Origin: Lytechinus pictus
Taxonomy: Eukaryota
DNA length: 60,000 nucleotides
Assembly: GCF_037042905.1 (NCBI RefSeq)
Contig: NC_087252.1
Coordinates: 6,450,001-6,510,000 of the forward strand
Direction of reading: 5' to 3'
Below are positions 15,255-51,110 of the stretch, piece after piece. Position numbers and translations under genes: made by a program. The notes under the pieces are model-generated. The model saw only the letters and a program-made list of their open reading frames with translations, ran no database searches and was not told the origin of the DNA. Position 1 is the stretch's first letter, and every line of letters starts with the position of its first letter.

Positions 15255-15640
15255 CTATAGTGTTTTCTTTTGAACATCCATTAACACACTTAACATGAAA
15301 ACAATCAACATCTTCTCCCAAGTTGGATCAATAAAAACAAGTTGAGAGATATCAGTTCTCTGGACGATAGTACTGTCCACATGGGCTTGGTTGTAGGTAA
15401 GCGATCCCTCGTTGATTTTCTCTGCACCAATACACTCAGTACTCCGTAACACATCCTTATCAGGTGTGGTGTCGCCGTCATTGTCTGTTGGTGGATTGGT
15501 CAGGTCTGCAGGATGCACCCCTTCAGCGGGTTCGTTGGCTGTCTCCAAGTCCTTTGTACTACCTCGTAGGTCCATGGTACTGCATTCTGGTGATACGTTA
15601 AGTACTTGGACATCAGAACCGGATCGACCTTGTGTTAAAG
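15255..15640 (-). CDS. Death-domain gene, last coding exon (acidic low-complexity tail)
   Basis: Acceptor ttccaaacag|, phase-1 entry matching the preceding exon; open to TAG at 15257-15255. Confidence 0.75.
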
Positions 15641-15699
15641 CTGTTTGGAATTAAAGATTTTAGTAGTCTGTATCAGTTAAACAAAGAGAGTTCTATGCT

Positions 15700-15860
15700 T
15701 GTACCGTATTTGGAACCTTTAGAGGTTCCCTGAAAGGTTCTAAATTACTTCAACCGCCACTTTGGATATGTTGTTCTTTAAAAAAAATCATTTAAGTTTC
15801 TTGAGCATATACAGAACCCTTTCGGGAATCCTTTTTCTCGAGGGTTCCAAATACGGGACA
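15700..15860. mobile_element. Small MITE
   Basis: Inverted ends tgtaccgtatttggaacc and ggttccaaatacgggaca. Confidence 0.6.
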
Positions 15861-16410
15861 GATGGGTTCCGATTCAACTTTTTTTTATAAGATTGATTTA
15901 TTATATTAATCTATAAACTTTCGCTTTCACCCTGATGTCAATAGGATTAATTTGCGCCAAATGAAAGCATGGGTGCGATGAACGAATCCTGGTGCAAAGG
16001 ATAACATCATTCTTGCAGTAACCTAACCGTCATTACAAACGTATTTTCAAATAAATTAACTTGAGAGTTGATACTAAAGAGTGTTTGTGAAATATTTGTA
16101 ATGCTAATTATTTGGAACAAGTTTTCCAAAGGAGTTGATTTGCAACTCTCGTAGGAAAACGTCATTGATATCAGAATAAGATTAATTGCAGTCTTGCCTT
16201 ATTAATTGGCTATACAATCGTAAACCGATACTGCATAAATAATGAATAAAATATTTGGGATATATATATAAATATATACACACACACCCTCACACCCATA
16301 CATGTATCTTTAAAGGCCTATATTATGTGTACTCATTCTACAGAACTCTAATTATTTAACCATATATGGCTCCATAACATGAATTATTCTGAGAAAGCTC
16401 ATGTGCTTAA

Positions 16411-17007
16411 AGGGATGGTCCAGGCTGAAAGTATTTATAGCTTAATAAATAGAGTAGAATTCACTGAACAAAATGCCGAAAATTTCATCAAAATCGGATA
16501 ACAAATAACAAAGTTATTGTATTTTAAAGTTTAGCAATATTTTTTTAAAACGGTCGTCATGAATATTCATTAGGTGGGCTGATGATGTCACATCCACACT
16601 TGTTTTTTTGTATTTTATTATATTAAAGTAGGTTTATTCAAATTTTTTCCTCCAAGAACTAGAAAAATTGGATTGACATTTGACATATGATTTAGTGCAT
16701 TAGATATTCATTGCTGTAACTTATTTAATTATAAGGGAGACATATTATTCACACAAGTATGAAATAATGAAAAAGATATGAGTTTATGTAATAACATAAA
16801 AAAACGGAAAGTGGAGATGTGACATCATCAGCCCACCTAATGAATATTCATGACGACTGTTTTCACACAAAAAAATTATATTGCTAAATTTTAAACTTCA
16901 ATAACTTTATTATTTGTTATCTGACTTTGATGAAATTTTCGGCATTTTGCTTAGTGAATTCTACTCTATGTATTAAGATATAAATATTTTCAGCCCGGAC
17001 CATCCCT
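16411..17007. mobile_element. TTAA-flanked MITE (Kolobok-like AGG...CCT termini)
   Basis: TTAA|agggatggtccaggctgaaa ... tttcagcccggaccatccct|TTAA with long imperfect TIRs; relative at 39996-40564. Confidence 0.85.
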
Positions 17008-17079
17008 TTAAAAATAAATCAGTGTCATTTCGTATAAAAGCCAACACATGATGATTTATTCATTAATTTCAATGATTAC

Positions 17080-17372
17080 CTAATTCACTGAGATACCGAT
17101 CTGTAAGTTCGATCAAGTTTGCCGCCAGCATTGCCTTCCTCAACACGACTCTTTCATCGGTCCTTGAAACGCCTTTCCTCCAATGTTTCAGCATATTTCG
17201 AGTTCCATCACTAGTAACATTGTTGAACCTCACGTTGTTCTTAAGAGCTCTTTGTATGTCACCTTGTTGGATTCTTAGATGACGTCCAAGGCTTTCGATC
17301 TGACGTTCATCAATGAGGTCGTCAGCTATCCGTGTTAAGATGCATGCAAATTCGTCATCTTGGACTTCATCC
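17080..17372 (-). CDS. Death-fold domain exon 2
   Basis: Acceptor cctcttag| (phase 2), donor G|gtaatc (phase 1); IADDL..IESLGRHLRIQQGDIQR..MLKHWRK..LRKAMLAANLIELTD fits the death-domain helix pattern. Confidence 0.85.
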
Positions 17373-17894
17373 CTAAGAGGCATTTGAAACAAAACCCATA
17401 ATCAAACGTATCACGATTCGTCCGAATTCAATTGATCAAGTCACGGCACAGTTGACATGCAACAGATTTTTAAATGTCATGGCTCCATTAATACCTCAGT
17501 CACATTTCCTCTACGGCGGCCGTACGGTGAGTCGAAAATAACCATTCTAACATTGTTCGTACATATAGGTGGTTTGAATAATAATGAATAAAACGGATGT
17601 TTTCGACTCGCCCTATCTCCGCCGTAGAGCAAATGTGACTGAGGTATGACTGACGTATTAAGCCCAGGGGACTTGAACACGTAGCCGCATGCAGCGCCTG
17701 TTGGACATGTATAAAAGAACATCTTCGTAATTCCCCCCAAAGTAGATGAATAAATGAAATACGAATGAATAAATAAACAAATTAACCTGTAATTATTAAA
17801 TAAGTAATCAAAATTAAAGAATAAGGAAGTAAGATCGGAATTTTAGCTTATCGCATGTTTTTTTAATTTGTTTTTTTTACATTAATTGTCTCAC

Positions 17895-17943
17895 CGGAAG
17901 TGCAATACATCGGTCCGTCCATCTTCAAAACCTGATGAACCCT
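17895..17943 (-). CDS. 49-nt linker exon (EGSSGFEDGRTDVLHFR)
   Basis: ttcttgacag| ... |gtgaga; phase 1 to 2 joins the two death-domain exons. Confidence 0.8.
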
Positions 17944-18858
17944 CTGTCAAGAATAAGAAAAACATTTTAAAAGATTATTTGGTACGCCTGCAATATATGA
18001 TTGGATAAAACGAAATATGAAATTATACAACTCCCAAGAATGTTCTGTAATCTGATTGGTCCAAATCGAACCACATGATATTCAGCGAATTGTACTGTTG
18101 CATTCAAAATGCACTATCCTGCACCCTGACGTCAGAGTGCAGGATAGTGCGAGTTCTGGAACTTTCTAGAATTATCTAGAATTTAGATCAAATACCGGAC
18201 TCGGTCCTGCGGACCTCGGTGCGGTATATCCATTGGCTCTTCTCGCACATCGTTCATTATTTGGCCCTGCATGCACGCGCTTACGTGCATTATTGGTATA
18301 TTATATATCACACATGTAAGTTTAAGAATAACTGCGAACGTCTATGAACAATCACACTATGAACAATTTTGTTTAAACATATAAATCCTGATCGACTGTG
18401 CTTAGTGAATAGTGGACTAAGGATTCAGATTTGCTTTTAAATCGATTACGATTTCAAATAAATCATAACAATTGAACTCATAAACTCATAGCTCTATTGG
18501 CTATATCACAGCTTATCGCTGATTTCAAGTCTCTGGTTAATGATTTGACAACTGACATGACTGAAGATATTCTGATTTACATCAAATGACAGTGAAACAC
18601 ATCAAGGCATAATTCGTCTTACCATACCAGGAGCTGCTCCAGGATTTTTAAAAGAAAGGTGAGGCATTTTCGTTTAGAAACATTTTAACAAGCCCCCCCC
18701 CCCCAAAAAAAAAAAAAAAAGAGGGGGAAAACATGGAAAAGGGTCTTTAGTCCAAATTGATGGTGATTTATGTCAGGACAGATGAGACAAGCAAAAAAGG
18801 CGGCAAGGGTCTGATGAAGGCCTACCCAAACCGGGATCCGCCACTGTATCATACTTAC

Positions 18859-19154
18859 CCTCTGGAAAGTGATCTTCGGCAAGCTTCGTCAACTTGGCAG
18901 CCACAAGTGCCCTCTTCATTTCTATCCGTTCATCTTCCGGAGATACGCCTCTCCTCCATTGCTTCAGCATGCCATAGGTTCCGTCACTGGTAATCTGGTG
19001 AAACCTCATATTGGTTTTGATCGCCCTCTCAATGTCTCCTTGGATGATACCAAGCTGGCCACCAAGACTGTCAATGCTGGCATCGTCGTAAAGATAGTCG
19101 GCGATTTGCTTTAAGATTTGTGCGAAGTCATCATTTGGGGGCTCTTCTCTGAGA
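18859..19154 (-). CDS. Death-fold domain exon 1
   Basis: tttaaatcag| ... G|gtaagt; FAQILKQIADYL..IDSLGGQLGIIQGDIERA..MLKQWRRG..MKRALVAAKLTKLAE; paralogous to 17080-17372. Confidence 0.85.
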
Positions 19155-19395
19155 CTGATTTAAAAATATGATAACTAAAAACAACAACAACAATAAAAAA
19201 TTGACTTATCGAGGAGAGGCACGATACTTGTACAATATGGAGGATGGAAGTGTGCCCTTCAATTTTTCGAAGTTGTACAGGCGCCTTTGTTAGAGGGTCG
19301 CCCCCCCCCCCTCCATGGAAAAAAAAAATCTTTAAAATCGCCGTCTGTGGACATGTATCATGAAATGTGTATACAGTTGGTGCTATAGAGCTCAC

Positions 19396-19465
19396 CTTGT
19401 TTGGGAAGTGGCATCCCCGTACATTCCTCCCATTGCATTAGACATGTTCGAATACATTGACGGCT
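19396..19465 (-). CDS. 70-nt linker exon (EPSMYSNMSNAMGGMYGDATSQTS)
   Basis: gcctacag| ... AG|gtgagc; phase 1 to 2. Confidence 0.8.
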
Positions 19466-19750
19466 CTGTAGGCATAATATAAAGTGAGAAGGGGTGAATT
19501 TATTGGCATGACACCTGTTGTTAACTTTTCATGAATCACTTCCAGAATGAGCAAGCATATCTAAAAATGATTGATAGATAATCATGAAGGTGGTCGAATT
19601 TCGCTAATTTGTCAGCAAGAACAATCGACAAGAGCTCTGGAAGTCTTTCGTGATATAATCCAAATTATAACGAGTGTAAAGGAGTGTCGAAGAGTTAATA
19701 AGGAATTTAAAATAACCGCCATTTATTGAAAATGATACATATTTTCTCAC

Positions 19751-21229
19751 CATGAAGATTATCTTTCCTTGGAGACACCCATGTGATGAAGTTCTGCATC
19801 CATCGCCGTTGAGTCTTCTTTTCCCAATGCCGTATTTCACTTTCTCTTTGGATCTTGTTTCGAAGCTTCTTTGCCTCACGTTCAAGTTGCTCCATGCGCC
19901 ATGTTCGCTGCTGTCGTGTATCACGTTCCATTTTCCAGTTTGATTCCAATGAAGATATTTCCTCTTCAAATCGAGTCCTTTCTTCCTCCCACGTTCTATG
20001 GGATCTTTCTGTTTTCTTCTTGAAGGACACCACTTCGCGCTCTTTCTCTGCCACAGTCCTAATCAGAGCTTGTTCCCGAGACTCCAGTTTCTTAAGCTCT
20101 TCTTCCAAATATCGTCTTTCCTCTTCAAGTTTCAAGTTGATTTGCATCAAAGACGTTTCCCTTTCCTTCATGTCCGCTGCCAATACACGCTTGTCTTTTT
20201 CCATTTTCTCTGTATCGTGCTTATGTTCTTCTGTTAATTGTTTCATTTTTTGAGCAAGAGTTTTTACTTTGCACTCTTTCTCCTGAATTTTTCCTTGCAA
20301 TGACTTCTCACGTCGCTGCGAAGACTCTAGCTCTCGCTCCATCTTCTTCGTATCCTGCGTATGCTTTTCTGTTAATTGATCAATTTTTTGTGTAAGAGTT
20401 TTTACTTTGCGCTCTTTCTCCAGAAGTTTTCTTTGCAATGACTTTTCATGTTGCTGCAAAGACTCTAACTCTTGCTCTTTCTCCGCGTTCACAGAGGGTT
20501 GTTCTTTTTCAATTTCATCTATTCTAGCCTTGAGTTGTTCGATATTCTGTAAAAGAGTGGTCTCGTTCCGTTTTTGTTCTTCTATCTTCCTTTTGAAAGA
20601 GGCCAATTTATTCATCAATGAGTCCTTCTCGGCATCAGCCTTTTTGCTTAACTCACTCTTTTCTGTTTTCATTTTATCTATCTCATCTTTCAAAGTCTTC
20701 CCATTCTGCTCAGTACCCTTCAGTTTTGTTTTAAGGTTTAGCAACTGTTGGTCCTTTCGCCTCATCTCCTTTTCCATCACAATCCTCTCCTGCCTGCATG
20801 TCTCTATATCATTTTTGGCCCGTTTCTTATTTTCGCTCAACGATACTCCCATTTCCTTTGACTTCCCCCTCTCCTTGGAAATCTCCTTCTTTAGTCTCGC
20901 GATCTCATTTTTCATGGTATCCTGAGTAGCTTGGGATTGTTCTAACTTACTCTCTAGCTGTTTAGTGTTGTTTCTAAGGGATTCATTCTCCTGTTTTCTC
21001 TGTTCAATTTCTCTTATGAGACTGAGAGCATTGTGTTGAATCACCCTTTCCCCTTCTTGGATGCATGCGAATAGAAGCTCAAGCCATGGCAGCCGGTCCC
21101 CATCGGTGAAGTGAGCATTAGATACGGGTACTTTGTAGATGTCGTGAATTCCATGTTTCTTTAATTCAATTGTTGCTTCATTAACATTACCCCCGACGTC
21201 CGCGTAAATACCAACGAGGGGAACATCAT
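19751..21229 (-). CDS. Large exon: end of the alpha/beta region plus a ~430-aa coiled coil
   Basis: Acceptor atgtacag|, donor G|gtgaga, phase 1 to 1; open throughout; E/K/Q-rich heptads. Confidence 0.9.
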
Positions 21230-21517
21230 CTGTACATAATGAATACGAAAAGTTTCATAACAGCTAGAAATATATATATATATATATATATAAATGTGTA
21301 AAGTTATACATGTACAATAGCTTTGGCAACTCTTTTGCCTTAACCACTATATGTATCAAACTGTATCAAAGCAATAGCTTTGATCCAGCTGAAGCATGGC
21401 GGCTTGTCATTGTTCGAAACCCACCTTCACCCGACAATGGAAATTATAATTGGTATAGTGTCGAAAATCTGTCTATCTGACGGTCAAGCGGATCGGGGTC
21501 GCCCTAGCCACTAATCC

Positions 21518-21589
21518 GTCTCTGTGGTCTAGTGGTTAAGGCACCGGCGTTCAAAGCTGGGGGCCCGGGTTCGATTCCCGACAGAGACA
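21518..21589 (+). tRNA. tRNA-like cloverleaf with TCA anticodon inside an interspersed repeat (probably pseudo or SINE-related)
   Basis: GTCTCTG/CAGAGAC acceptor stem, GTCT/AGGC D stem, CCGGC/GCTGG anticodon stem with loop GTTCAAA, CCGGG-TTCGATT-CCCGA T arm, followed by TTTTTT. Confidence 0.5.
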
Positions 21590-21690
21590 TTTTTTCGGCA
21601 TCACCAATTTTTCCAAAGGGTAGATAGCTCTGGGGAACCTTGATTTAAGCTACGCCTACCACTGTTCTCTTCATCCATTTCTTTACTATA

Positions 21691-22510
21691 CAGTGCGTCC
21701 CACAAAAAACGAAACCGAGATTTATCGATGATTTATCATAACTTAATCACGAATACAATAGACAAATGACCTACCATTGTAAAGCTTAGAATCTCCTCTT
21801 TCATCTGAAATTACTTAGATTATTTCTCATTCACGCATGAGTGAGCAAAAACAATTTGAAGAGGGGATACCAAAAAGTCATTTAGCGGGCTGTATCTGGG
21901 TTTCAAAAAGAAAACCACATTATTAAAAAGTTCAATATCTGCTCTTTAATTTGATACCTCAATTACAGAAAATTGTCAAAAAATAACAAAGTTATGGTTA
22001 TTTGAAATAAGGCTTGAATTTCAATAATTTCATAAAATTAAGAGGTTCTACAGGTTAGCGTTCAAACTCACTTGACACTCCGTTTTGTTGACGATCAGCC
22101 ATGCATTAAGTCTTTTGTTAACCATGCGATAGCTTCTGTGGGAAACCGGTGAAAACACGTTTATTTAATGAAATTATGGAAATACAAGCATTGTTTCGAG
22201 GGAACATAACTTTTTTACTTCTTGACCATTTTTTGTGATTAAGGTATCAAATAAAAGAGCAGATATTGAACATTTTAGGCATGTGATTTTCTTTTTGAAA
22301 TTCAGATACCCCCCGCCAAATGAGTTTTTGGTATCCTTTCTTCAAATTGTTTTTGCTCACTCATGCGTGAATGGGGAATAATCTAAGTAATATCAGATGA
22401 AAGAGGAGATTCTAAGCTTTACATTGGTAGGTCATTTGTCTATTGTATTTGTAATTAAGTTATGATAAATCATTGCTTAATCTCGGTTTCGTTTTTTCTG
22501 GGACGCACTG
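21691..22510. mobile_element. Tc1/mariner-type MITE
   Basis: TA|cagtgcgtccca..aaaaaacgaaaccgaga ... tctcggtttcgtttttt..tgggacgcactg|TA; TIRs of several hundred bp. Confidence 0.9.
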
Positions 22511-23599
22511 TATATATATATATATATACATGTATATATATATATTTGTGTGTGTGTGAGAAATGATACATGATCAGCACCTTTGGCAACTCTTTTATTT
22601 AAATATTTTGTGAAAGAAATGGATGAAGCGAACAATGTATATATATTATAATATATATATGCGTCTGCTCTTTATTCAAAATATAGTATTTATAGAGCAG
22701 CTGAATTGGTATTGTATCTGTTCGAATAAACATTAGACACATCTGTTCGAATTACATGAATTAAGTGGAATGTAAGCGTGATAAGTATTAACAGGGGTGT
22801 TAAGATAGAGAGGGGTTTGGTGTGGGTGTGTTTTTAAGAGATATAGACTCAGACATAATATAGGGAGAGAGAAACGATAATGTAGAGAGCTAGACGCAGA
22901 CGGACTCGCAAACGTTATTAGTTTGCATTACCCGTGATTTCCAGCAGACAATAACAAATGAAAAACATTCCACCTCAAAGATCTTGACACAATGTGTTGG
23001 AAGTCGACCTTTTGGGGAAGTGTTTAAGAACTCTCAGGAGCAATGCACACATTTTTTAGTGGCTTACAGCACGTAACTGCAGAAGTACGTATATGGTTTA
23101 ACATGTACCCCCACCGAAGGCTTAAGATATAATAATATGGATATTTTAAGAGATCAAATTTGATGTTTTTCAATTCATTTGAACAACATTTTTTGTTTTG
23201 TTTTGAATAATGTTTGTATTCTGATTTCATGAACAAATAGTTACATAACATTTCAATTTAACATTTCAAATCACATATAATACTTTACATTTCATATTTT
23301 CACTTTTTTCACTAACTTAATATAATCATGAATCATATATATCTTAAAAGAAAACAATGAAATCAGTTATTATTTAAATGCTTAAACACCAATCTTCCCC
23401 TTCCCCCCTCCCTCCCCCGCCCCAACACACACACACACAACACACCACTGTTCCAGAAGATCTGCTCACACTCATCATAAATAAATCATGTTTATAAGTA
23501 CAAAACAATTCGATGAACAATTTTTAATATAACAAAATCACGGGAGAAGCATTACATATATTGAAAGTAAATAAAGACTTACAAACTTAACCTTGTCAT

Positions 23600-24828
23600 A
23601 ATTTTACCGTTTCCCATTTTTGCAAGTGCCGCCCTAATTTCCCCATTTTAAGAGCTATTTCTTTTCTTGATCCTTATATTCTAAAATACGTTTATGTATA
23701 TCGTCAATGGTTGGTAATACCCCCTCCTTTCTAAATATAAATAATATGTATTTTACCATAAAGATAATAGTATTACAACTTTTTATTCTATTTGTATTGC
23801 CTGACAGACCAACAAATATATCCCGCCAATTCAAGTCCTTTATTTCATCTAATTAAAATCGCTGTATCAAAGTTTCCCATATCCGTTTAACCTTTAAGCA
23901 AGACAAAAATATATGTGAATATGTTTCCGTTTCCCGTTTACAGTACGAACAGAGATTATCTTCAACAAATCCAAATCTAAACAAATTAACTTAAGTGCAA
24001 ATTGCCCCATGCAGTAGCTTAAATTGAAATTTTCTCTGTCTCCCAATCAATAATGTTATTCTTGGTCTAAAAAAACATTCACCAATTTCTTTCTCTGTAT
24101 AATTATAATTATTTTGTCCATCTCTTATTTGTAAATCATATGACTTTTGCAATTCTTTAATAAAATAATCATATATTTTTCTTGATGGTACCTTCTTAAA
24201 GCCAATTTTTCTCCCCAACAAAAGCAAGTTTATATTATAGTTAATTAAGTCTATCTCACAAAATTGTATCGAACCTAAATCATTTCTCCAATCACTTGGA
24301 ATTGCATGATACATTTCACCTATTGTAAACAAATGATCACTTCCCATACCAAGGTTCAAAAAGTATGCGACTGGTTTAACATGTCCATTGTCAATGATAT
24401 GTTCCACCTTAATTTAACATCGTTCTAATAAATCTTTATCAAATATCATCTTATTTTCTATATAAATATTCTTATTATTGAAAATGATTGGATTTTTAGA
24501 ACCATTAAAATGTCTTAATTATCGATCTCTTGCCAAGCATCTGGCATTTCCAAATAATACGATGGAATCTTCAACTTACTTTTTATCTTTTTCATTTCAC
24601 AATCACATAGAAAAATTAACCTTCCTCCAACTGAACTTAGGGAATAATAAAAAATAACTTCCACCCCAGATTTCTTTCTCGATACAAAAGTCTTTTTACC
24701 CACATTATACGCTGGGTTCTAACAAATATTCCAAAATTTATCATTTTAACCCCACCACAATTATAATTCTGATACATAATCTTTCTTTTAATACGATTTT
24801 TCCCTCCCCATATAAAATCAAATGATAT
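23600..24828 (-). mobile_element. Degenerate 3' fragment of a related L1/Tx1 LINE ORF2
   Basis: Translates to FDFIWGGKNRIKRKIMYQ, FQFKLLHGAI and IALKMGKLGRHLQKWE, homologous to the C-terminal part of 8285-10069; many stops and frameshifts. Confidence 0.85.
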
Positions 24829-24854
24829 GCTTCGGTAACAAGAAGAGAACTCAC

Positions 24855-24910
24855 CCGTAATTTTCTTTATTGTATCTATCCAACCGGAGTAAGATGAAAC
24901 ATTTCTAGGG
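24855..24910 (-). CDS. 56-nt exon (HPRNVSSYSGWIDTIKKIT)
   Basis: tttattacag| ... G|gtgagt; phase 2 to 1 exactly bridges 25523 and 21229. Confidence 0.8.
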
Positions 24911-25522
24911 CTGTAATAAACGCATGGTAGTGAAAAGTGTAAGAAACATGAGGACTACGATTTCGTTATAATACGAGAACAATATGCCGGAATCATGATG
25001 GTCCATGATATGACGTAATCATTTTATTTTTTATTTATTTATTTATTTATTTAAAAACAGGGAAGCCCATTCAACAATGTGTTGGTCTCCCATGGGGCCC
25101 TGTGACAGTGTACATAGCATAACATAACAGTTATAACAATTAATTTACATAGCAACATCATAACATAAGAGAGGCATAAATAAATCAGTAAATACATGTG
25201 AAGGAAATAAGGAAACATACAATTGACAATCATGACTCTTATCACATTACCCCCTCTTGTCTTTCCTACACAACGTACCATCACCCATATGTATGTATAT
25301 ATAAATATATATATATCTTAAAAGTTTCACGTATTGGCTTCAGTAATGTAACAAAATAATATTGCTGATGATAATGCTTTGATTGCCAAAAAAGTTTTTA
25401 TTATTCACTTGAATTTTCGACGGTCCTCCTTCTTCTTCAGGAGTTTACAATATATATATATATATTCCATTTTTTGTCTAATGCAAAAATAAAAACAAAA
25501 TTCGATAGAAGATATTACTCAC

Positions 25523-25586
25523 TGAACAAACAGAGCGATGCGTCCGACCTTCCTCGCAAGGTATTCAACATCTTTTGTGAATGTAC
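25523..25586 (-). CDS. 64-nt exon (GTFTKDVEYLARKVGRIALFV)
   Basis: aatgtag| ... CA|gtgagt; phase 1 to 2. Confidence 0.75.
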
Positions 25587-33297: not shown

Positions 33298-33671
33298 CTA
33301 ATCCATATTTCTCTATGACGGCAACAGAAGATGTCAGATCTATCTGCTCGGCTTGGGAAGATGTAGGTTCTGGTTTGTTTTCCTGTTTCACATCCCCATG
33401 AAGGGCACGACGAATGTAAGGCACTATGTTCGGTGAATTCCAATATGGATCAATCACTCCAATGGTAAGCTTGGAAGGGAAAAACACTCGTTTATCATCA
33501 CAGGACGCATTTTCTCCTGGTGTATACGACAATATTTCATGCTGTATTGCTGCAAGCTTATGTGGAATATCTGGACTAGAGAATTCCATATTTGCACTCC
33601 AATTTTGTCTGAATATGTTGCGTCCAACTATGATGCTGTCGGACGTGTTCTCATACAATAATGCGATGTTG
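33298..33671 (-). CDS. Exon encoding the N-terminal half of a degenerate P-loop/IFI44-like region
   Basis: Poly-T tract with tandem acceptors (tatag|33676, cgtag|33671); open frame NIALLYENTSD..HEILSYTPG..KLTIGVIDP..VAVIEKYGL; donor G|gtctgt, phase 1, matches the next exon. Confidence 0.7.
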
Positions 33672-35905: not shown

Positions 35906-36886
<981 letters not shown>

Positions 36887-38010: not shown

Positions 38011-38637
38011 GGGGGCGCCGGGGTCTAATGGTTACAACTCTAGTTTTTCAATCAGAGGGACGTGGGTTCAAATCCCATCCTTGGCGTGTTTTCTGGCAGC
38101 AACATATTTACCCACATTGTGCTGCACTCAACCCATGTGAGGTGAATGGGTACCCGGCAGGATTAGTTCCTTGAATCATCGACCTACTACTGATGCACTG
38201 AGCGCTGAAAGGCAGCTCGAACTAAAGCCGGGGTAATGATAATAATATTGATAATAAACAATGCGCCTCGGAATAGATTATTTCTAGAAAGATGGCACTA
38301 TATGAATGCCTATTTTTATTAGTATTATTATTATTATCATTATCATCATTATTGTTATGATAATAATATTAATAATGATAATAATAATAATAATAATAGT
38401 TATTATTATTATTATTATGATTATTATTATCATTATCATCATTATTGTTATGATAATAATGATAATAATAATAATAATAATAATACTAGTTATTATTATT
38501 ATTATTATGACTATTATTATCATTATTATTATCATCATCATTATCATTATTGATATTATTATCACTATTATTATCATTATTATCATCATCATTATTATTA
38601 TTAATATTATTATTATTATTATCATTATTATTATTGA
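38011..38637 (+). mobile_element. tRNA-derived SINE with an expanded (ATT/ATC)n tail
   Basis: A/B boxes (gggtctaatgg, ggttcaaatcc); same body as 14758; ATT-type repeat at ~38315-38637. Confidence 0.75.
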
Positions 38638-39304: not shown

Positions 39305-39995
39305 GGGTTAGTGGCTAGGGAGACCCCAATCCGATTGACCGTCAGATTTTCGACACTATTTTCTAAACCCACCTATACACCCGACAAAGGAAATTATAAT
39401 TGGTATAGTGTCGAAAATCTGTATATATATATATATATATATTTTTTTTTTTTGGGGGGGTAATATCTATACAATAATTATCAGTATCAATGTTGCAAAG
39501 TGGAAATGTGGAGAAAAAAGGAAATATCATAAATTTTCATTATTACCCCCCCCCCTCCCTTGGATTATCAGCGTGCAAAGAGTTAAATGTTTGGAGTCGT
39601 TGGCATGGGTGTCGGTCGGTGTTCATGGTTGGGGGATTCTCCTCGAGAGATTTGTTTTAGTTAAGGGATGGGGTTCAGTGGCGTAGGGCAAAAGTTATAA
39701 AAAGCTGCGAGCGAGCAAAAATTTGGACCTTTTAAATGCAACAGATTTTGACATGATATTTAAAAAAAGATATCATATCGCATCCTGTTTCTGTTCCTTC
39801 TCCTTATTTTCCCTTCTTTCTTTGTTGTGGGAACGACTAAAAAACATGGCATGTCAGGGCTCCGTATAGTACTTGGACATTGAGCATGTGTGCTCAAAGG
39901 CAACTTAGCACCAGGGTGACATTTCTCGTCTTTTGCAATTTCTCGTGGCCGTTGCCTTAAAATCGCGCAATCGTCGTGATGATCATATATCTTAA

Positions 39996-40564
39996 AGGGA
40001 TGCTCCGGGCTGGAAATAATATGATTTAAACAGATCAAGAAAAATCAGACAAAACAAAACACTGAAAATTAGATCAAAATTGGACAACAATTAACAAAGT
40101 TATGGCATTTCAAAGATTTGCATTATTCCGGTGAAACAGTTCCAGGCATGTCTTCATGAAAATTGATGATGTCATATCCCCACTTGTTCTTTTGTACTCT
40201 ATCATATGAAATTGGGTTTATTAAAAAAAATTAACCAAGAACTGAAAAATTTAGATTGACAACTGAGTTAGTGCATTAGATATTCATTGCTGGAACTTAT
40301 TTCATTATAGAGGAGACACATTATTCACACATGTATGTATGCAAATATTGAAACAATTCTGATTTCATGTAATAACATATAAAAAGGAAAGTGGAGATGT
40401 GACATATTCATTATGACGTGTATATGCCTATTTTCACAAAATAATACTATATAAACTTTAAAATTCAATAAATTCGCTATTTGTTATCAGATTTTGATGA
40501 AATTTTCAACATTTTGTTTTGTGAATTTATTTAGATATAAATATTTCCAGCCCGGAGTACCCCT
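39996..40564. mobile_element. TTAA-flanked MITE (Kolobok-like)
   Basis: TTAA|agggatgctccgggctggaaat ... atttccagcccggagtacccct|TTAA. Confidence 0.85.
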
Positions 40565-40580
40565 TTAAAGTCTTTCCTTT

Positions 40581-42750
40581 CCTTTCATTGGCAATATCCT
40601 ATTGTATATGTCACCATAAGCATGCTGATAGACCTATACCCAGGGGCGGATCCAGCCTTTGCCAATAGGGGGGCCTGGATTTTTTGTTCAGCCATATTTT
40701 TCCCGATCGGCCCCTTGAAAATGATTTTTGGTTTCTTTGAAGGGGGTATTCATATTAGTCACTTCTTAGTTTTATTCTTAAATATACAGACATAAATATA
40801 TAATATCATAATCATTATTTATATAATGCGAGCGCGAAGCGCGAGCTAAATTTTTTTTGTGGAAATCTTATGTATTTCTTCCTAAAATTTTGAACATTCT
40901 GGGCAATGATTGTTATCCTGAAAAATATGTCTATGCAAATGAATAATTACTAAGAACGTGAAGCGCGAGCAGAAATGAACTGATGGAAAGAGTACTGTTA
41001 AAGACTGCTTGCAGTTAGCCATGTAGACGTAACATATTTTAAAAATCAAATAATGCGAGCGCGAGCTGAAATTTTTACCTAAGGAATGGAAATTCTACGC
41101 ACTTTTTGTAACTTACACAGAATAGGTATATAACTAAACAATTGATGCGAGCGCGAGATTTAGACCTACTGAACGAGACACTCTATTCAAGTTTTGTAAA
41201 TCATGAAAAGGATGAGTAAGTGGGGATCTTCCTTACATTAATAATGCGAGCGCTAGCAGAAAATTTTTATATACGTTTTGAATTGATCGAAAAGGTACCT
41301 GTTAAGGACTGCTAGCACTTATAGCCATGAAGACGTTACATATATAAACAATCAAATAATGCGAGCGCGAAGCGCGAGCTGAAAATTTTTGACATTTCTT
41401 CATAAAGAATGTAAAATTTTAATCAATTTTTGTAATTGTGAACGGGATAGGTATATAACTAAGCAATTGATGCGAGATTTAAAAAAAATCGAGATTTAGA
41501 CCTAATAACGGGACACTCTATTCATGTTTTGTAAATCATGAAAAGAATGAGTAAAAGGGGATCTTCCTACATTTATAATGCGAGCATGCACAAAGTGCGA
41601 TCAGAAATTTTCTGATGTTGTGACTTGACACTGGATAATGATTTAAATATAGAGAAAAAGTTGAGTATCTGAATAAACATGCGCGCGTGTTTCATATTTA
41701 GACCTAGAATCTAGGCATTCTAAATACATCTTTTGTCATGAAAATCAAAGCGAGCGCGAAGCCCGAGCTTAAACTTTTTGATATACCGATCTAAAAAGAG
41801 TCGATTTCAGCTCTATATTTCAAGCACTTTGCAGGAAAATTGTGAGGTGGATATGGATCGCACATAATTATTACTTTAAATTTTTACATACGACTGGGAC
41901 ATGACGACTATTTTCCTATTCCTCTTGCTGAGTGCGAGATGAAACAAAAGGGACAATTTAATTAATATCTTATTCATTAATGCCTAATGAGGGTGCGAAA
42001 TCTGATGATATTATGGCCTGAAAACTGGACATTTCAAGCACTTTTGTAATTATGAATAAGATGCATCAGTTAATATATTTTAACCATTAAATCGAGCGCA
42101 AATCGCGAGCCAATTTTTTTGATAAACTTGTCATGAAAAGGGGATTTTAAGTAGTTTGTCGTATAATCAATATTAAGACACACATAACTCGCCAATCAAA
42201 ATGCGAGCGTGCAGCGCTAGCTGATACGTTTTGACAATCAGACCTGAAAAGGGATATTTTGAAAACTTTATGGAATACACGAAAATAATAGGTACCTAAT
42301 ACATCAAAATTTTACGAGCGCGCAGCGCGAGCAGAAAATGTAAATACTCAGACCATAAAACTGACATTTTTACAGAGCACTTTTTAAAAATAAATTTGTA
42401 AATCACACAAAATAATGAAAGTTCGATTTCCGAGGTGAAATATGTTTTGTATATTGACTTCCAAACTTGACTTTTAAACTCCATATTGAACAAGATATGA
42501 AAAGCACCTAACAAGCAATGCGAGCGTGAAGCGCGAGCGAAAATTTTATATAGTGGCATGAAAGATTCTTTTTATTTTCCAAGTCTTCCCCACATCTTAT
42601 TTTATTCACTCGTCTTCATCCTCTTCTTTTTTCTTCTCTCTTTTCCTTCCCTTTCCCCTCCTTTTTGCCTTTTTTCCCTTTTTTCATTTTTTTGCTCCGC
42701 CAATAGGGGGGGGGGCGGGCCCCTCGCCCCCCCCCCTGGATCCGCCTATG
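40581..42750. mobile_element. hAT-type non-autonomous element with an internal tandem array
   Basis: caggggcggatccag ... ctggatccgcctatg; 8-bp TSD CCTATACC; recurrent gcgagcgcgaagcgcgagc. Confidence 0.9.
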
Positions 42751-42856
42751 CCTATACCGTCATAAACATTGAAGAATCAAAAATAAAATGAAAAACCGCG
42801 TCGGCACAATGGTAGCAAGGCTTCTGTCCTGGGATGGTCTGCAGTCACGAGAACTG

Positions 42857-43419
42857 GGCCCCGTCTTACAAAGAGTTGCGATTGATCCGATCAATCAAAA
42901 CTATTGAAAGCCAGCAACCCCAACATCTAAAATCCACGTTTGTTCAAAATATATTCTAGATATGATGTGTATTCATACATTCAACGTTTTCTTTAAAATT
43001 AAATGTGCTTCTATTTTGTTTATACAGAGGACAATGTGCAAATTTCCTGGGGAAAATAATTATGACATTGATGATTTTCCGTACTGATAGTTGAGGTTGA
43101 TCGGATAAATCGTAACTCTTTGTAAGACGGGAGGGACCCTGGGCCCCGTCTTACAAAGAGCTCCGGCGATTGATCCGATCAATCGCAACTATGGACGGCC
43201 AGCAACGTCAACAAGTATTATGCTTGTTTGTTCAAAATATTTTCTATCTATCTATGATGTATATTCATGCACTAGTTGTTTTCTTAAAAAAATCACTGTG
43301 CTTCTCTTCGTTTACAAATGAGTAATGTATATTTCCTGTAGAAAAATTTATGACACTGATGGATTTCCATAGAGTTACGATTGATCGAATCAATCATAAC
43401 TCTTTGTAAGACGGGGCCC
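42857..43419. mobile_element. Two adjacent copies of a Harbinger-like MITE (42857-43138, 43142-43419)
   Basis: ggccccgtcttacaaagag ... ctctttgtaagacggg TIRs; CTG before, between and after the copies. Confidence 0.85.
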
Positions 43420-43958
43420 CTGGGGTACACGGGCAGTAGGTTGTGAAAAGTAGCCCCCGAAAATGAAAAAAAAAAACCTGTTTGGCCTTAACGGGACGTG
43501 CCGCTGAAGAATCAAACCCAATTTGAATGTATTTGTTGAAATATTTGTAGCAATGACAGAAATATCAAGTTAGGCCCTCCTCTATTGTACTTCTGAATAA
43601 TATTTCAAGCGATTTTTCTTTAATAGAAGAATTTCTTTTATCAGAAGAATTCTATAAGCAGTATAGCAAGTCCTATTTTCCTAGAGAAAGAGTAGTAAAA
43701 TTGATAAAAGGGTCATTTACGTGTATATTTCTCCTTCTAAAAATATATGGGAAGCCAAAAGGGGGTACTGTACCCTGTTCCTATAGCATTTTGCTGCATG
43801 AAATCATGCACAGTGCTAGTGTCTTTATTAAAGATTTATGTAGTATGTATTTAACTTCCTTATATCCTTTCAGTCATTCACCTTCACTTGTTTACAAACT
43901 CCCCCAATTATATCTAAGAATCTAACCCCCCAATACCATTTAACTCCTAAACCCTGAC

Positions 43959-46900
43959 CAGTGGCGTAACAGGCGGGGGGCAGGGGGGGGGGGCAAGCTG
44001 CCCCCCCTGGTGGAGCTCACCGGGAAAAATTAAAAAAAACGAACGGGAAAAAGAAAAAAAGGGGGGGAAGAAAGGGAAAGGAGGGGGAAAGAAAAAAGGG
44101 GAAAGGGGAAAGGGAAAGGAAAAGGGAAAAGAAAACTAAGAAAAACATGAAAAAGGGAAAACGGAAAGATAACGGGAAAAGGAAGGAAAAAAGAACAAGT
44201 GAGAAAGAACAATTCGCCCCGATATACAAATACATTAGCATGATTAGTAAGACAGGGAAATAAAATAAAGATGACAAAAAGGCAAACAAAAGCGGGAAAT
44301 AAAGGCAGAATGGAATCAGCCAAAATCTAAATTGGAAAATAAAGAATAGGGACAAGATAACGTACACTACCGGGCTGCCGAGGATTGAGATAACGAGCGG
44401 GAAGAAAAATGGATGGTATATAGCATAATGTCGCATGAAAGTCTATCATAAACTTGCTAAATCTCCAAAGGCTCTGTCCAAGAGTCAAGACCCCGTGCAG
44501 TGGGGGCTCTTCATCCGTAACATTTAATGGGTTCTATAACGGGCCCATATATGGACCCTTCCTGCATTAAGCTTTACGTTGAGGGACTGGCGTACCGGTG
44601 GGTGGTTCCACAGCCAAGTGGAAATAAATGAAAATAAAGGAGGCAGCGAAATGAGATGAATGAAAAAAAATATATGACATGATATTTGCTATAATGATGT
44701 AAAAATCTATCACATAATTAGAATTTCATTTTAACAGGCCATTTTTTTCTGGCTCGCTTCGCTCGCTGGCAACTTTTTACAAATTTTCCCACATTTGCTA
44801 TGGTGTGCCCCTAATATTTGGATGATTACGATACACAACTGCATTTAATGTATGTGTTGTGTTAAAGCTATATAAATATACACGCAATTTGATTAAGATA
44901 AGTGGCCATCTGTAAGGTTTAAAATGGCTTTGATATCAAAAGGTTCCGGGGCTCTGCCCTGGACCCCACCCATAAAGCACTGTTATATGGATGAGTTTGG
45001 ACCATGGCCCCCAACAGTTCTACAACCAAACCAAAAAACATGAGGAAAGAAAGGAAAGTGTATTATATTTTTCTGAATATCACGTTAAAATCTATCTTCA
45101 TGTTAGCTCGCTCGAGACCTATGTTAAACTACTTCTTGCCAGAAGCGCCATACTCGGCCCCCTCGAGCATATAGAGTTTCGCCCTGATGCTCACAATCAT
45201 AACAAAAATCCTGTTCACCGTGGCGTACAAAAAAGAGAGAAAAAAGGAGAGAGACGAGGGTGAATATGATATCATCTTTTAACATTATGTCAAAATCTTT
45301 TAAAAATTGGATTTTTGCAATAAAAATATCAAATTTTTTTGCTCGCTCGCTTATATATATATTTGCCCGATACGCCATATCGCCCCCTCAAAATGTTTGC
45401 CTTATGACGCCATTGCCTGTTCCATGATATGACCGGGAAATGTTTGGCTCTTGCCCAGTGGCGTACCGTGGGTCACGGCATTGGGGGGGGGGCACCAACA
45501 AAAATTTTGAATCACTTAGTGAGCGCGCGAAGCGCGCTCAGTTGTCAGGTATACTGACCTAATAGAGACATTTTAAGGAAGCACTTGTAGTCATTGTAAT
45601 CATGAATAACATACACATCTCAGCAATCAAATAATGCGAGCGCGAAGCACGAGCTGAAAATTTTTGATATTCAGACCTAAAAATGGACTTTATAATCGAA
45701 TTTTTGTGATCATGATACGTACCTGTCTCGCTAAACAATGCGAGCGCGAAGCGCGAGCCGAAATTTTTTGTATATATTGATCCCAAACAGGGACAGGACT
45801 ATATTTTAGGAATCTCTTAATAGTATACATATCTCACCATAGTCATCTAATGCGAGTGCCAAGCGCGTGCTGATTTTGTCAGAATTAAATTTAAACACAT
45901 ATGAAACACTTGTAGTCATTTTAATCATGAATAACAGGCATCTCACTAATCAAATTTTGCGAGCGCGAAGCGCGATCTAAAAAATTATGAATTTCAAACA
46001 TGAAGAGGGGCAATTTAAGGCTTGTTTGTAGGAATTCGCGAAACCATACGTATTTCAATAACCAAATGATGCGAGCGCGAAGCACGAGCTGAAATTTGCG
46101 TATATATTGACCCAAAACAGGATTTTTTTAAAGGAATCCATTAAGAGTATACATATCTCACTATAGTCATGTAATTCGAGTGCCAAGCGCTTGCTGATTT
46201 TTTAAGAATTACATCTGAACACATGAAGCACTTTTTGTAGTCAATGTAATCATGATTATCATACGCATCTCACTAATCAAATATTGCGAGCGCGAAGCGC
46301 GAGCTGAAAATTTAGATAATTCAGACCTGAAGCGGGGAAGTCTAAGGCTTGTTTGTAGGAATTCACTAAGACCATACGTATTTCACTAACCAAATAATGC
46401 GAGCGCGAAGCGCGAGCTGAAAATTTTGGACATTTAGATCAGAAAAAGGGACATTTCAAGGACTGATTTTAGAAATTCATGGAGAGCAGACATATCTCAC
46501 CAATTCACTGAAGCGAATGTAATCACGGACATATTTATTTCTATTCTATATTCTATTTCTATATTTATATCAAGACCTTAACATGGAGCAATCACTTTAA
46601 GTAGTCATGAAAAAGAACCATATGTCACTACATAAACAATAACATATTTGGTGTATATTGACTTGAAAACGGGAGGTTTTCGTACAACAGGTTTATATAT
46701 CTCTTTAAACAGACAATGCGAGCACCATGAACAATGAAGACATGGACCCTGAGCAAATTATGTTTCATAAAGTTATGATAAAAATGTTTTTTATGTAAAA
46801 TAACATAACATTATTATAATACAATATACAATTATAATGAATAATAATTTCTGCTTTCCCACTACGTTCCTTTTCCTTTCTCCCTCTTTTTCTCCTTTTC

Positions 46901-47006
46901 CCGTTTTTTTTTTTTTTTTTGTCAGCCGATTGGGGGGGGGGCACGTGCCCCCCATGCCCCCCCCCGTAGTTACGCCACTGCTCTTGCCCCCCCTGTTACG
47001 CCGCTG
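43959..47006. mobile_element. hAT-type non-autonomous element (host of a nested copy)
   Basis: cagtggcgtaacagg ... cctgttacgccgctg; 8-bp TSD ACCCTGAC. Confidence 0.9.
45456..46980. mobile_element. Nested hAT-type element
   Basis: cagtggcgta ... tacgccactg; 8-bp TSD CTCTTGCC. Confidence 0.9.
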
Positions 47007-49331
47007 ACCCTGACCATAAAAGGCCAACCCTCAGTGACGTCAGCTAACTTCAAGGAACAAAAGTTCTAAGAAGTATGGCTCACACTTCCTGCCCAAGTCA
47101 CTTGCACAGAGTATCACCACACTTCTTATAACAGAGAAAGTTTGATAGACAGTTACCTGTAGACCAATCAGAACAAGTTTAGATCACTCCCACCTTAAAT
47201 TGTTACACCCCAAAAACTAGTGATATAAAGAAGACTTCTTGAATATTAGAGATAGAAAAATACTAGACCCACACTCATCCATATAGACTGACTGACTTCA
47301 AGACTTAGACGTCCATCCAATATTATTTTAACTTCAGAATCTTAATCTTATACTTCGAAATTATTATATTCATCGTCTCCTGTTTTATCTGAATCTTCGT
47401 TGATATCTTCATGTACCTCTAAAATATTATATTCATCGTTCTAAACACGACAAAAGGGTGGTTTAATGGACAAGAGCAACAGCACATTTCCATATATTTA
47501 TACGCAAATAAAAAAAAATAAGATAAGTAATTTTTCACTTTTCACTTTTCAGAATGGATGGCAAGTTTTAAATTATTTCCTGATACATAAAGGGTTCTGT
47601 AGCAAAGGAAGTAATTAACATGAAATAGTGAACAATGCAAATCTAAGTTGGCTAGAAGAGATAAGGAGGGGGGGGGGGGTGCCCTACTCCCATACTTCTC
47701 AAATTCATATAACCATGCACTTACATCACCCCTTAGATAATACTTGTTATAATATACGTTGGTGACTATGTCCAACAAAAAATAATGATCAAAATCAACA
47801 AGAGTTTTGGTAAATTCTAACCAATAATTTGGATCGATTTTATTTTTTTTATTCATGTTTTTGTTGGAGATGTCAGACACAATCTTTAACGCTAATGGAA
47901 TTCGAGAGAATCGGTCAATATTTCCATGTTTATGGTATTTATTTTACCACAAGAAGTCTATATATGCAATACTGCATGTATAGTTTACACCATGAAAGAT
48001 TATTTATGGTGAATGTCATAAATAATTTACTAAAATACTATCTTCAACATATCTTGGAATGGAATTCATTCAAACATGCATAAAAATAGGTTCAATTGAC
48101 AAAAAATATTTTACCATTGGTCATTTAATCTGAAAAAAGCATACTCATATATTTTTGGTCAGATTGAAAGAAATATGAGTTCGTCTTTCGTTGGCCCTGA
48201 ATCTATTATCTTTTTTAATATATAAATAAGGAAATTATAAAGTTCAAAATTTTGCATTCAAGATATTTGGAATAAGGGAATTGCTGAACCTAAAATTCTG
48301 AACATCTTATTACAAACGCATTTCGCTGAACTATGAACTTTACAATGAACCATAATACGATATGCATAACATTATATTGCAGACGATGACATGAAAATTT
48401 GTGCAAAAGTTATAGATATGAATATACAAAATACAGCCCATGAATAAAGTATATACATTACTACCTGTATACCACACCGACAAAATTGACTTTTTGCCAC
48501 ATAGAAGCTAATTAATGATTTAACATATTTAACATATAACCATATAATGAATTATCATTGCGATAATGATTTTGAATATTAAGTATAGACAAGAGTTTTC
48601 ACAATAGATCAGAAGATACGCATACATGATCTTATTAGTTCATATAATTTACGTGCACATGAATATGACATTTTTAGTCTGAATAACGTAAAAGTCATTC
48701 TCATATTTTTCTTCATATCATTATAATCACCATCAACATCACTATCATTATATTACAGACATCATGAGGCTTGTGATTATTACTTCCATCACAAAAAAGC
48801 AGCAACAATGTTACCATGACAATAACAATTATTTCATGTCAATGGGGTGGGCGTGAATTGAGATTCATAAGTAGCGTAATACCACAATTCATTAAACATT
48901 TTCCGTTGTTGTTCAATTTAATAGTTCAAACCTTAAACAAGCCCAAAACCAGTGTTGGGCCTACGTCACATAGCATACAAAGTAATTTTGCTTTTCATTA
49001 CTTTCCTTTTTTTTTCTTAATCCCACTTCAATTTTTTCAAATCAAGTCTTGTTTACGATGATACAACAATGTTTGCGAGAAATGCAACTGCAATATTTTG
49101 CAGCATATGTTGACGGGTGATGAGACAATCGAAATTGATTCATCTTGATTTAGTTCACCCGGCCGATGGCTTTTTTGGATATGATGTTAAGAAAATTATC
49201 TTCATCGTATATCAAATGAATTCATCTCTTTATTCACAGTTACTTCAGAATAGTTTGTAATCAATATAAACTTCACACAAAACGTTTCTACATTTTCATT
49301 TATCAATTATTCCATCATAAACGATTGATAG

Positions 49332-49626
49332 CATGGGCGGAAATTCCAGGGGGACAGGGGGACGTGTAGGGGGGGGGGGGACACAATATCAAATGTCCCC
49401 CTACTATTTTTCGTCTTTTATGATGGAGAAAAAATACATCATTCACAATCGAAATAATACATGCATTTAGGACGTTACAGTTTGGGTGAAAACCTTTTTT
49501 TTTTTGCTTGTCAATTATGTTTTTGGGTTAAAATGACCTAACATTTTGGGTGAAAACCATTTTTTTTGCTTGTCAAATTTTCCAGCCCCTGGTTCCCCTA
49601 CCTTTGGGGACAGATTTCCGCCTATG
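49332..49626. mobile_element. hAT-type MITE
   Basis: catgggcggaaat ... atttccgcctatg; 8-bp TSD ATTGATAG. Confidence 0.85.
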
Positions 49627-49755
49627 ATTGATAGTCTGCTTGTACCGATGTTTAAAAAAAATCCATTACGCGTATAGGATTTGACACATCAATTGAAATA
49701 TTACGATTATATTTGCCTTATATACTGTTATACCAGTAGAAAACTACAATATCTT

Positions 49756-50284
49756 AAGGCTACCACACGCCTTAAGCCCCTTTCACAAGTCGTGATGCGA
49801 CTGCTTACAACCTTTGCGATTGTGTGCAACATATATTGTGACCAAATGATCGCAAACGATTGCACGAGTAATTGTGAGAGCCCCTTTGCGATTGGTCTGT
49901 GACCTGATTTGATGTAGTAGAATTAGATGCCAACATTAAGGCATGGAATGTCTCATTATGTAATGTTCTAAATCATCGTACGAATAGTTCGAATCTGTGA
50001 CTATATATAATCCTTATTATATTATAATAAAAGTAAATGTAATATCTAGGCCTAGTTGTAATGACGTCTTAGCAATTGTACGATTGGCTATACGATTTGA
50101 AACTTATTTGGCCTTTACTCCAAAATAAAGGCTTGCAAATCATGCAAAATTGTTTTATAACTATTTTTCAACTATTTTTTTACAATATGCGTTTCATTCA
50201 CATTTTCAGAAAGTGAGCAAAATGCGATTTGTTTCAAAATAAATCAGATCGTCAGTGGACCGGTCGTTAGGTGTGCGGTGCCCT
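49756..50284. mobile_element. Degenerate Harbinger-like MITE
   Basis: Imperfect inverted ends aggctaccacacgcctta and ttaggtgtgcggtgccct. Confidence 0.5.
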
Positions 50285-50324
50285 CTGCATAGGCGTATAT
50301 TTCAACTATGATGATAATACCATA

Positions 50325-51110
50325 CTATTTCCATTGTGCTAAGGCTTCCTTGATTTTACAAACTTCTTTTTCCAAAATCGTGACATCAATTTTGCGCAGG
50401 GAATTCATCCTAACTCTCACTTCACCTTCAAGACGTTGCTTCAAGATTTCGAAATCTCTTTTGAGTTCTGCGTCCTCAAAGTCGCGCCACCGGCCGTATT
50501 TGTCTCCATAGCGGATTGCAGAGAGACCGGTCCCCGACATGCCTTTTGAAGCATCCCATAGAGCTAAGAGCTCTATCAACTCGGCCCAGTCTCCAGTCTC
50601 GAAGGTTCTGACGCTCAAACCTAGTGACACGAGATTTTCTATATTTTCGCGGCCCTCTTCGGATGGGTTATGCCCGCTTGCACTGCCCTTGAAGCAACCT
50701 CGTTGCAAACAGGACGGTCTGTTAATTTTGTAGAGAGCGGAAAACACCAACTCGAAACTCATTTCTTTACCATTACCTTTGTTAAGTTTTTTCTTCATCT
50801 CGCGCAATCTGCCACAGCAGTCAAAACCCGGATTGCTGCAGGGTGAATATTTACTCAAAATCTTCACGGAACTTATTCTTCTCTGGTTCTCTTCAAAGAA
50901 TCTGATTAGGCCATCTTCAGCGTGATGTCGGGTACTGCTTCGGTTGATAAAGACTGTTTTCGCTCCACCTTCCAGACTTACGATGCCAACACATACTGCA
51001 GTATCCCTCCACTGAACTTTGTTACTCCCTACAGCATGAAGCCCGCTCTCGATAAACAGCTCGAGTATCTCCTGACCGGTCATCTCTGGGCAGTTGTTAT
51101 TATATTCCAT
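50325..51110 (-). CDS. AID/APOBEC-like zinc-dependent cytidine deaminase (261 aa unspliced; probable first coding exon of the death-domain gene)
   Basis: HAE at aa 63-65, YSPC-x6-CC at aa 88-99, loop-7-like FSALY; exon acceptor ttctgcag|51163 with an in-frame TGA upstream of the ATG at 51110. Confidence 0.9.
   Translation of the reverse strand: MEYNNNCPEMTGQEILELFIESGLHAVGSNKVQWRDTAVCVGIVSLEGGAKTVFINRSSTRHHAEDGLIRFFEENQRRISSVKILSKYSPCSNPGFDCCGRLREMKKKLNKGNGKEMSFELVFSALYKINRPSCLQRGCFKGSASGHNPSEEGRENIENLVSLGLSVRTFETGDWAELIELLALWDASKGMSGTGLSAIRYGDKYGRWRDFEDAELKRDFEILKQRLEGEVRVRMNSLRKIDVTILEKEVCKIKEALAQWK

Follow-up and report, generated by a model that had tools for sequence, protein, structure and literature searches.

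Invertebrate AID/APOBEC-like deaminases are defined by HxE and CxnC motifs (PMC5889660), and those described from the sea urchin Strongylocentrotus are active and inducible by Vibrio (PMC5956068). The GIMAP/AIG1 proteins of the snail Biomphalaria combine a P-loop GTPase fold, a coiled coil and a death fold in one immune-type protein (PMC7053062). A relative of the former and a protein of partly similar architecture to the latter lie in the stretch analyzed here, 60,000 nucleotides of Lytechinus pictus (assembly GCF_037042905.1, contig NC_087252.1, positions 6,450,001 to 6,510,000 of the forward strand), which we call the window and which is part of contig C8 of an 812-Mb genome. A sequence-only reading had joined ten exons of the window into one gene for a deaminase fused to a pseudo-GTPase, a coiled coil and tandem death domains, and its central inference, that an editing enzyme and a death-domain scaffold form one protein, finds no support. 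We conclude that the window very probably holds two independent genes on the same strand, a stand-alone deaminase (gene A) and a gene for a degenerate GTPase-like protein with a coiled coil and a death-like domain or domains (gene B), and that the apparent fusion most probably arose when two neighbors were joined by mistake. Gene A adds to a deaminase family that is already known, and gene B has already been predicted but is misnamed.

With the metal-binding clade of lophotrochozoans and echinoderms among classical invertebrate AID/APOBEC-like deaminases, as described by Krishnan et al. (2018, PMC5889660), gene A has in common the HxE/CxnC motifs, a loop-7 aromatic (Y127), an invariant His of loop 1 and, less securely, Cys/His within a long loop 7, as well as a lineage-specific expansion (nine copies here) with tandem clusters and a pseudogene copy. 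What sets it apart is a spacing of six or seven residues from the first cysteine to the second and a 30-residue helical C-terminal extension otherwise found only in its closest copy, on contig C2. The criterion for the clade is a loop-1 His plus three loop-7 Cys/His, and on its motifs gene A is a candidate member. The SpAIDL proteins of Strongylocentrotus purpuratus, as presented by Liu et al. (2018, PMC5956068), are like gene A stand-alone APOBEC_N proteins of a polymorphic multigene family; compared by description, SpAIDL1/4a have 193-194 aa and a PCxxC motif, whereas gene A has 261 aa and a longer Cys loop. For gene B, the nearest described architecture is that of the snail AIG1/coiled-coil/death-domain proteins, although in the account of PMC7053062 these carry an N-terminal death domain and intact G1-G5 motifs, whereas in gene B the death-like region lies at the C-terminal end, the G1 and G3-G5 motifs have degenerated and there is no Pfam AIG1 match. 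According to the same source, GIMAPs are not known from Strongylocentrotus.

Results

The features of gene A and its flank are as follows.

50325..51110, minus strand: gene A coding sequence, a 261-aa AID/APOBEC-like deaminase with HAE at 63-65 and SPC-x6-CC at 89-99, ending in TAG at 50327-50325
51111..51163, minus strand: part of the 5' untranslated region (UTR) of gene A within the deaminase exon; the acceptor AG ends at 51164, as read from the sequence
48776..50324, minus strand: transcribed tail of roughly 1.5 kb past the stop, taken as the 3' UTR of gene A, from assembled contigs; coverage ends near 48770 in two runs
39434..51459, no strand assigned: segment collinear with G000:C2:21.134-21.139 Mb in ordered blastn blocks of about 78-83% identity, comprising the deaminase and its downstream flank, expanded by repeat insertions

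The exon structure proposed for the fusion was reproduced: ten minus-strand exons are separated by nine introns, all GT-AG and with matching phases, and the spliced total of 3852 nt gives 1283 aa plus a stop with the frame open throughout. In the interval from 33.7 to 50.3 kb, as in the sequence-only reading, no other gene was seen among open reading frames of at least 90 aa. The first junction joins TA to C, and its "donor" overlaps the stop codon of exon 1, such that the unspliced exon ends at TAG 50327-50325 and the spliced one would read TA + C, giving Tyr. The join of 50326 to 33671 is unsupported, as RNA-like contigs from two runs in two studies pass unspliced through this donor. Four runs were mapped to 46600-55000, so no gene B junction is covered. 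Run X1 yielded an 856-nt contig (depth 8.02, 0 mismatches) over 50261-51115, extending 65 nt beyond the donor, and a second contig (depth 8.63, 0 mismatches) over 48776-49331; run X15, from a different study, yielded a contig of depth ∼4 over 50204-51161, extending 122 nt beyond the donor. Alignment of the X15 contig halts at 51161, 2 nt short of the acceptor at 51163/51164, and its 156 unaligned letters, whose side is uncertain, fit a spliced 5' exon of gene A. In both runs, 48.8-49.1 kb is covered at the depth of the exon and the low-copy stretch 47724-48566 has no depth at all. This pattern points to RNA and fits a terminal exon of ∼2.4 kb, and it fits neither DNA nor a long intron. Bin depths equal single-contig depths (7.8 observed, 7.79 expected), and among the joints and loose ends listed none falls at 50326, where contig depth is not raised either. 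No AATAAA was found near the end of coverage; an ATTAAA lies at 48917-48922. Depth at 53625-53905 was considered as a 5' exon of gene A and rejected, as it falls on a dispersed repeat with 32 matches. The raw RNA runs X21 and X22, which carry the same species label, are nearly empty on the deaminase exon as compared to X1 and X15, which could reflect restricted expression or a gene missing in some individuals; presence/absence variation has been reported for invertebrate AID/APOBEC-like deaminase genes (PMC5889660).

By sequence comparison, the downstream half stands as a gene in its own right, with a conserved start codon, and consists of the following features.

33298..33589, minus strand: first coding exon of gene B, from Met 33589, the start of XP_063959130.1; N-terminal part of the Ras-like-fold domain
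25523..25586, minus strand: exon within the G-domain fold; frame, splice sites and RefSeq match
24855..24910, minus strand: exon within the G-domain fold; frame, splice sites and RefSeq match
19751..21229, minus strand: large exon covering the last part of the G-domain fold and a predicted coiled coil of ∼420 aa; RefSeq match
19396..19465, minus strand: linker exon; frame, splice sites and RefSeq match
18859..19154, minus strand: death-like domain 1; 84 related genomic matches
17895..17943, minus strand: short exon; RefSeq ends at a TGA overlapping its donor
17080..17372, minus strand: death-like domain 2, outside the RefSeq model; similarity to domain 1, Pfam Death and the dN/dS ratio
15255..15640, minus strand: proposed last exon, a low-complexity tail; candidate, from an open frame and an acceptor

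Exons 2-8 of the proposed fusion thus stood while its first join did not: XP_063959130.1 ("trichohyalin-like", L. pictus, 769 aa) begins at Met 33589, residue 290 of the fusion, and is identical to residues 290-1058 at 769 of 769 positions. All four RefSeq proteins found (two from L. pictus and two from L. variegatus; 4 matches among 999 candidates) start at the aligned Met, so that the three homologues, XP_063959375.1, XP_041469887.1 and XP_041470137.1, begin at the equivalent of Met 33589 and lack a deaminase. XP_063959375.1 ("myosin-1-like") corresponds to the gene B paralogue at C8:333773-338850 (L025, L026), in which a single death domain is accompanied by a long acidic tail and the exon borders, read from the sequence, match those of exons 2-5. 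This was the only further gene B paralogue found in the genome, and both L. variegatus proteins are close to it; no L. variegatus orthologue of the window gene was found. The paralogue carries an in-frame stop 11 codons upstream of the aligned Met with no AG between, and the 28 residues between the junction and Met 33589 have no counterpart in it. The RefSeq name and those of the homologues reflect the coiled coil only, leaving the G-domain fold and death domain unnamed, and XP_063959130.1 lacks exons 9-10.

The halves are also unlinked in the copies examined for this. The genome contains nine deaminase copies (9 of 9 candidates), and in the other eight the deaminase occupies a single reading frame closed by a stop. 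The closest copy, on C2, was the one around which downstream exons were sought. At 85% identity to the window copy, with which it shares the downstream sequence, it is interrupted by an internal stop and terminates at the same TAG. Behind this TAG it reads GTT, as opposed to the GTA of the would-be donor in the window, and the twins differ by a dS of ∼0.17 with a dN/dS of ∼0.41. Because 39434-51459 is collinear with C2, the proposed 16.6-kb intron consists in large part of sequence that flanks the deaminase downstream and was copied along with it; for the two blocks tested, the only full-length second match was the C2 21.134-21.139 Mb locus. No gene B exon was matched in the 30 kb surrounding the C2 twin, and the 40 kb examined at the gene B paralogue contained no deaminase match. 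The C2 twin (L002, C2:21138233-21139033, whose internal stop is a TAA and which looks like a pseudogene) forms a tandem pair with L003 (C2:21107538-21108254), which is nearly identical to L. variegatus XP_041457445.1. Two more clusters of three copies each lie at C17:2.31-2.45 Mb (L004, L005, L009) and C19:1.44-1.50 Mb (L006-L008), where L007 and L008 have long acidic tails and nearly identical 3' parts.

An open frame across the junction from 50326 to 33671 is weak evidence, no better than chance, because four of the eight other deaminase copies also have an in-frame GT[AG] donor for 33671 within their last 40 codons; all eight offer one in frame with at least one YAG upstream of the Met, and by chance alone 29 codons upstream of Met 33589 would be open with a probability of ∼0.28. 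Long relatives were not found either. A deaminase profile search of 1.84 billion representatives gave 230 matches, and the 150 listed have a median length of 229 aa, the longest being 631 aa. Pfam analysis of 28 of these, including all 16 of at least 350 aa, revealed deaminase domains, often in tandem, and no death-fold or NTPase family, and a home-made death-domain profile found none convincing among the 150. A word search found no longer deaminase relatives among 2471 candidates of 458-2000 aa, which is weak evidence, and none for the coiled-coil exon among 7999 of 862-2460 aa, a range that leaves out its real relatives of 769-840 aa. The exact 261-aa deaminase was absent from the protein collection searched. 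The literature searched, mostly outside subscription journals, contained no report of a deaminase-death-domain fusion or of the gene B family, and the premise that fused signalling domains occur in some of the AID/APOBEC-like deaminases of invertebrates has no echo in the main text of PMC5889660, where "death" and "fused" each occur 0 times.

That the 1283-aa fusion is the main product of a single gene is thus extremely improbable. Its open frame, its nine of nine GT-AG junctions and the reality of all four domain types are set against unspliced read-through in two studies, a conserved internal start codon at which the RefSeq model begins, the lack of long relatives and the separation of the halves in paralogues. 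We reject it as the main product on the basis of contig read-through, gene B's own start, the RefSeq model and the chance-level frame fit. Contigs that carry the deaminase to TAG 50325, a downstream half with its own conserved start and homologous halves that lie apart are largely the outcome that the sequence-only reading had itself named as contrary to a fusion.

Several points weigh against two separate genes. Read-through rests on assembled contigs of depth 4-8, and assembly drops rare forms; the RNA label of these contigs is a tool's guess, backed by the coverage pattern, and the raw-read runs X21 and X22, almost without reads on the deaminase exon, are uninformative. A further 1057 loose ends and 46 joints fall outside the listed set, the 5' end of gene B is outside the read-mapped stretch, and RefSeq models are predictions. 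The GTATGG donor that overlaps the stop could in principle be used and surpasses the corresponding C2 site, and the frame is open from 33671 to Met 33589. Among deaminase relatives, 80 of 230 are outside the listing, and one, P0122, had the best score on the death-domain profile at 9.4 bits, as compared to 135-139 for true members.

In a compromise reading, two genes coexist with a minor or conditional read-through isoform: once the deaminase block had come to lie upstream of gene B, the GT overlapping the stop would sometimes be spliced to 33671 to make a young deaminase/pseudo-GTPase/coiled-coil/death-domain chimera. The two genes are on the same strand with nothing coding between and an in-frame junction, GTA stands in the window copy in place of the GTT of the C2 twin, a rare form would escape contigs at depth 4-8, and a second stop-overlapping donor at exon 8 suggests that the locus can choose between splicing and read-through. 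We nevertheless consider such an isoform improbable, given the lack of a listed joint, loose end or extra contig depth at 50326, the ease with which frame compatibility arises by chance, and the 28 residues between junction and Met without a paralogue counterpart. Stop codons overlapping a splice donor occur in both genes (window 50325-50327 and 17893-17895); at each, the protein stops if the site is read through and would be lengthened if it is spliced.

The domain calls of the sequence-only reading (an APOBEC-fold deaminase, a degenerate Ras-like fold, a coiled coil and death-like domains) hold up. Exon 1 is a genuine APOBEC-fold deaminase. It matches Pfam APOBEC_N over the cut-off (E 6.6e-6), its AlphaFold2 model from seven aligned genomic copies has a pLDDT of 77, and the listed Foldseek matches of that model are all APOBEC3/AID (APOBEC3F, 3H, 3G, AID; best E 3.3e-7), although a PDB sequence search gave nothing meaningful. 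HAE and SPC are unchanged in seven of seven aligned copies, so that the zinc-binding HxE and CxnC motifs are present, with H63-A64-E65 and P90-C91 invariant and the second Cys at 98/99 in gene A. An aromatic loop-7 residue of the kind that accommodates a pyrimidine, Y127, is invariant directly after a predicted strand (118-123) and was matched to APOBEC3A Y130 by position. H25 and C134 are invariant as well; C139 and H149 are present in the window copy, in a poorly aligned, low-confidence loop.

The first 214 residues of gene B were modeled from a three-sequence alignment with a pLDDT of 79 and a pTM of 0.81 (two of five models were poor). The model matches the small-GTPase fold: Foldseek gave KRAS/Rab at E 3.5e-5, and VIA gave DiRas1 at Z 12.2 (rmsd 3.5, 148 aligned), with Z of 11-13 across many GTPase families and no clear winner, so that no family can be assigned. 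The G1 GxxxxGK[ST], G3 DxxG and G4 NKxD motifs (consensus from PMC7053062) do not occur, with no GK[ST] after strand 1 in three of three aligned proteins; the only invariant G-motif residue among these three is the Asp at the G4 position, D148, and the paralogue retains a D-x4-G-x-S relic at the G1 position. "Pseudo-GTPase" is thus a fair label, suggested by motif loss. No Pfam AIG1 match was found at E up to 1 in four of four proteins, and the motifs that go with the AIG1 domain in GIMAPs, G1-G5, the CB box and IAN, are absent. A PDB sequence search with the G-like domain gave nothing meaningful, and an Atlas search with the first exon alone gave no usable match; an Atlas search by features scored clusters of GIMAP, CENP-M and Roc at 0.80-0.83 (CENP-M 0.81), which are leads only. 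CENP-M is a pseudo-GTPase and, like gene B, has a Ras-like fold without catalytic motifs. DAP kinase carries a death domain. It exemplifies the Roc/AP-GTPase death-domain proteins (as described in PMC8195603), and gene B does match a chain containing the Roc domain of LRRK2 (Z 12.0), though without a COR domain, kinase or repeats. The coiled coil of ∼420 residues is suggested by composition, repeat and weak Pfam coiled-coil matches, and the large exon contains a 138-bp tandem duplication at 20200-20477.

How many death domains gene B encodes is less clear-cut. Exon 9 (domain 2) matches Pfam Death at E 0.011, exon 7 (domain 1) has no match, and seven of seven relatives tested match weakly (E 0.0004-0.04, all under the cut-off); a PDB sequence search with domain 2 found no match. 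A single death domain, with exons 9-10 a separate or decaying fragment, would agree with XP_063959130.1, which stops after exon 8, with an ATTAAA at 17867 just past the exon 8 TGA, and with the one death domain in all three homologues. This reading is unlikely, though clearly a contender, as exon 9 is intact over 97 codons, has splice sites in the phases of exon 7 and shows a dN/dS of ∼0.12 against the paralogue, with synonymous sites near saturation. Because exon 9 is also 51% identical to exon 7 and under purifying selection, a two-domain isoform is likely, and exon 9 is probably a real exon in at least one isoform of gene B. The last exon (15255..15640) had no Pfam match and no match in the paralogue region.

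Discussion

As two separate genes, the locus would work as follows. Transcripts of gene A would enter the deaminase exon at 51163, be translated to TAG 50325 and continue as 3' UTR to ∼48770. The gene A segment was duplicated between C2 and C8, presumably from C2 to C8 because C2 holds the tandem pair, and the window copy is intact and transcribed while the C2 twin carries an internal stop. Gene A may be a zinc-dependent C-to-U editor of single-stranded nucleic acid acting in innate defence; the fold and catalytic motif are present, and with activity and role taken from relatives we hold this to be on balance probable. Gene B would start at Met 33589 and encode a Ras-like fold without the G1 lysine and with most G motifs lost, an extended coiled coil and either one or two death-like domains. 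Its degenerate G domain might bind a partner or ligand without catalysis, its coiled coil might oligomerize and its death domains might recruit other death-domain proteins. We give this scaffold function about an even chance, the architecture being observed and the mechanism suggested by it.

Both genes are modest leads for sea-urchin immunity. The analysis contributes a Lytechinus deaminase family of nine copies, among them a transcribed member that was recently relocated, and it flags a small, misnamed degenerate-GTPase/coiled-coil/death-domain family in an animal group reported without GIMAPs. A fusion would directly link APOBEC-type editing with death-domain signalling, but the evidence does not support it as the main product. 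It is conceivable, though very improbable, that a deaminase duplicate of dS ∼0.17 landed upstream of an old gene B and that its stop-hidden donor is used in some cells or after infection. If so, it would be a young, regulated chimera tying a nucleic-acid editing or sensing domain to a death-domain scaffold, of which there was none in the literature searched or among the 150 listed relatives.

Other features of the window

Between genes A and B lie a 978-bp TTTC array (window 35909-36886) and a 325-bp TAT array (38311-38635), and an intron of gene B contains a LINE fragment (23866-24822, minus strand) 63% similar to a LINE-type retrotransposon at 5070-10069 (plus strand), the latter with endonuclease- and reverse-transcriptase-like frames split by stops and its family judged by eye. 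Upstream of gene A is a Ty3/gypsy-like pol frame of 652 aa (57227-59185, minus strand), its RNase H and integrase recognized by eye, next to tandem repeats at 55230-56745. Downstream of gene B, on the same strand, is the first coding exon of an SLC5 sodium:solute symporter (12453-12833, minus strand; Pfam SSF E 4.6e-6), a family that is large in this genome, with 102 matches.

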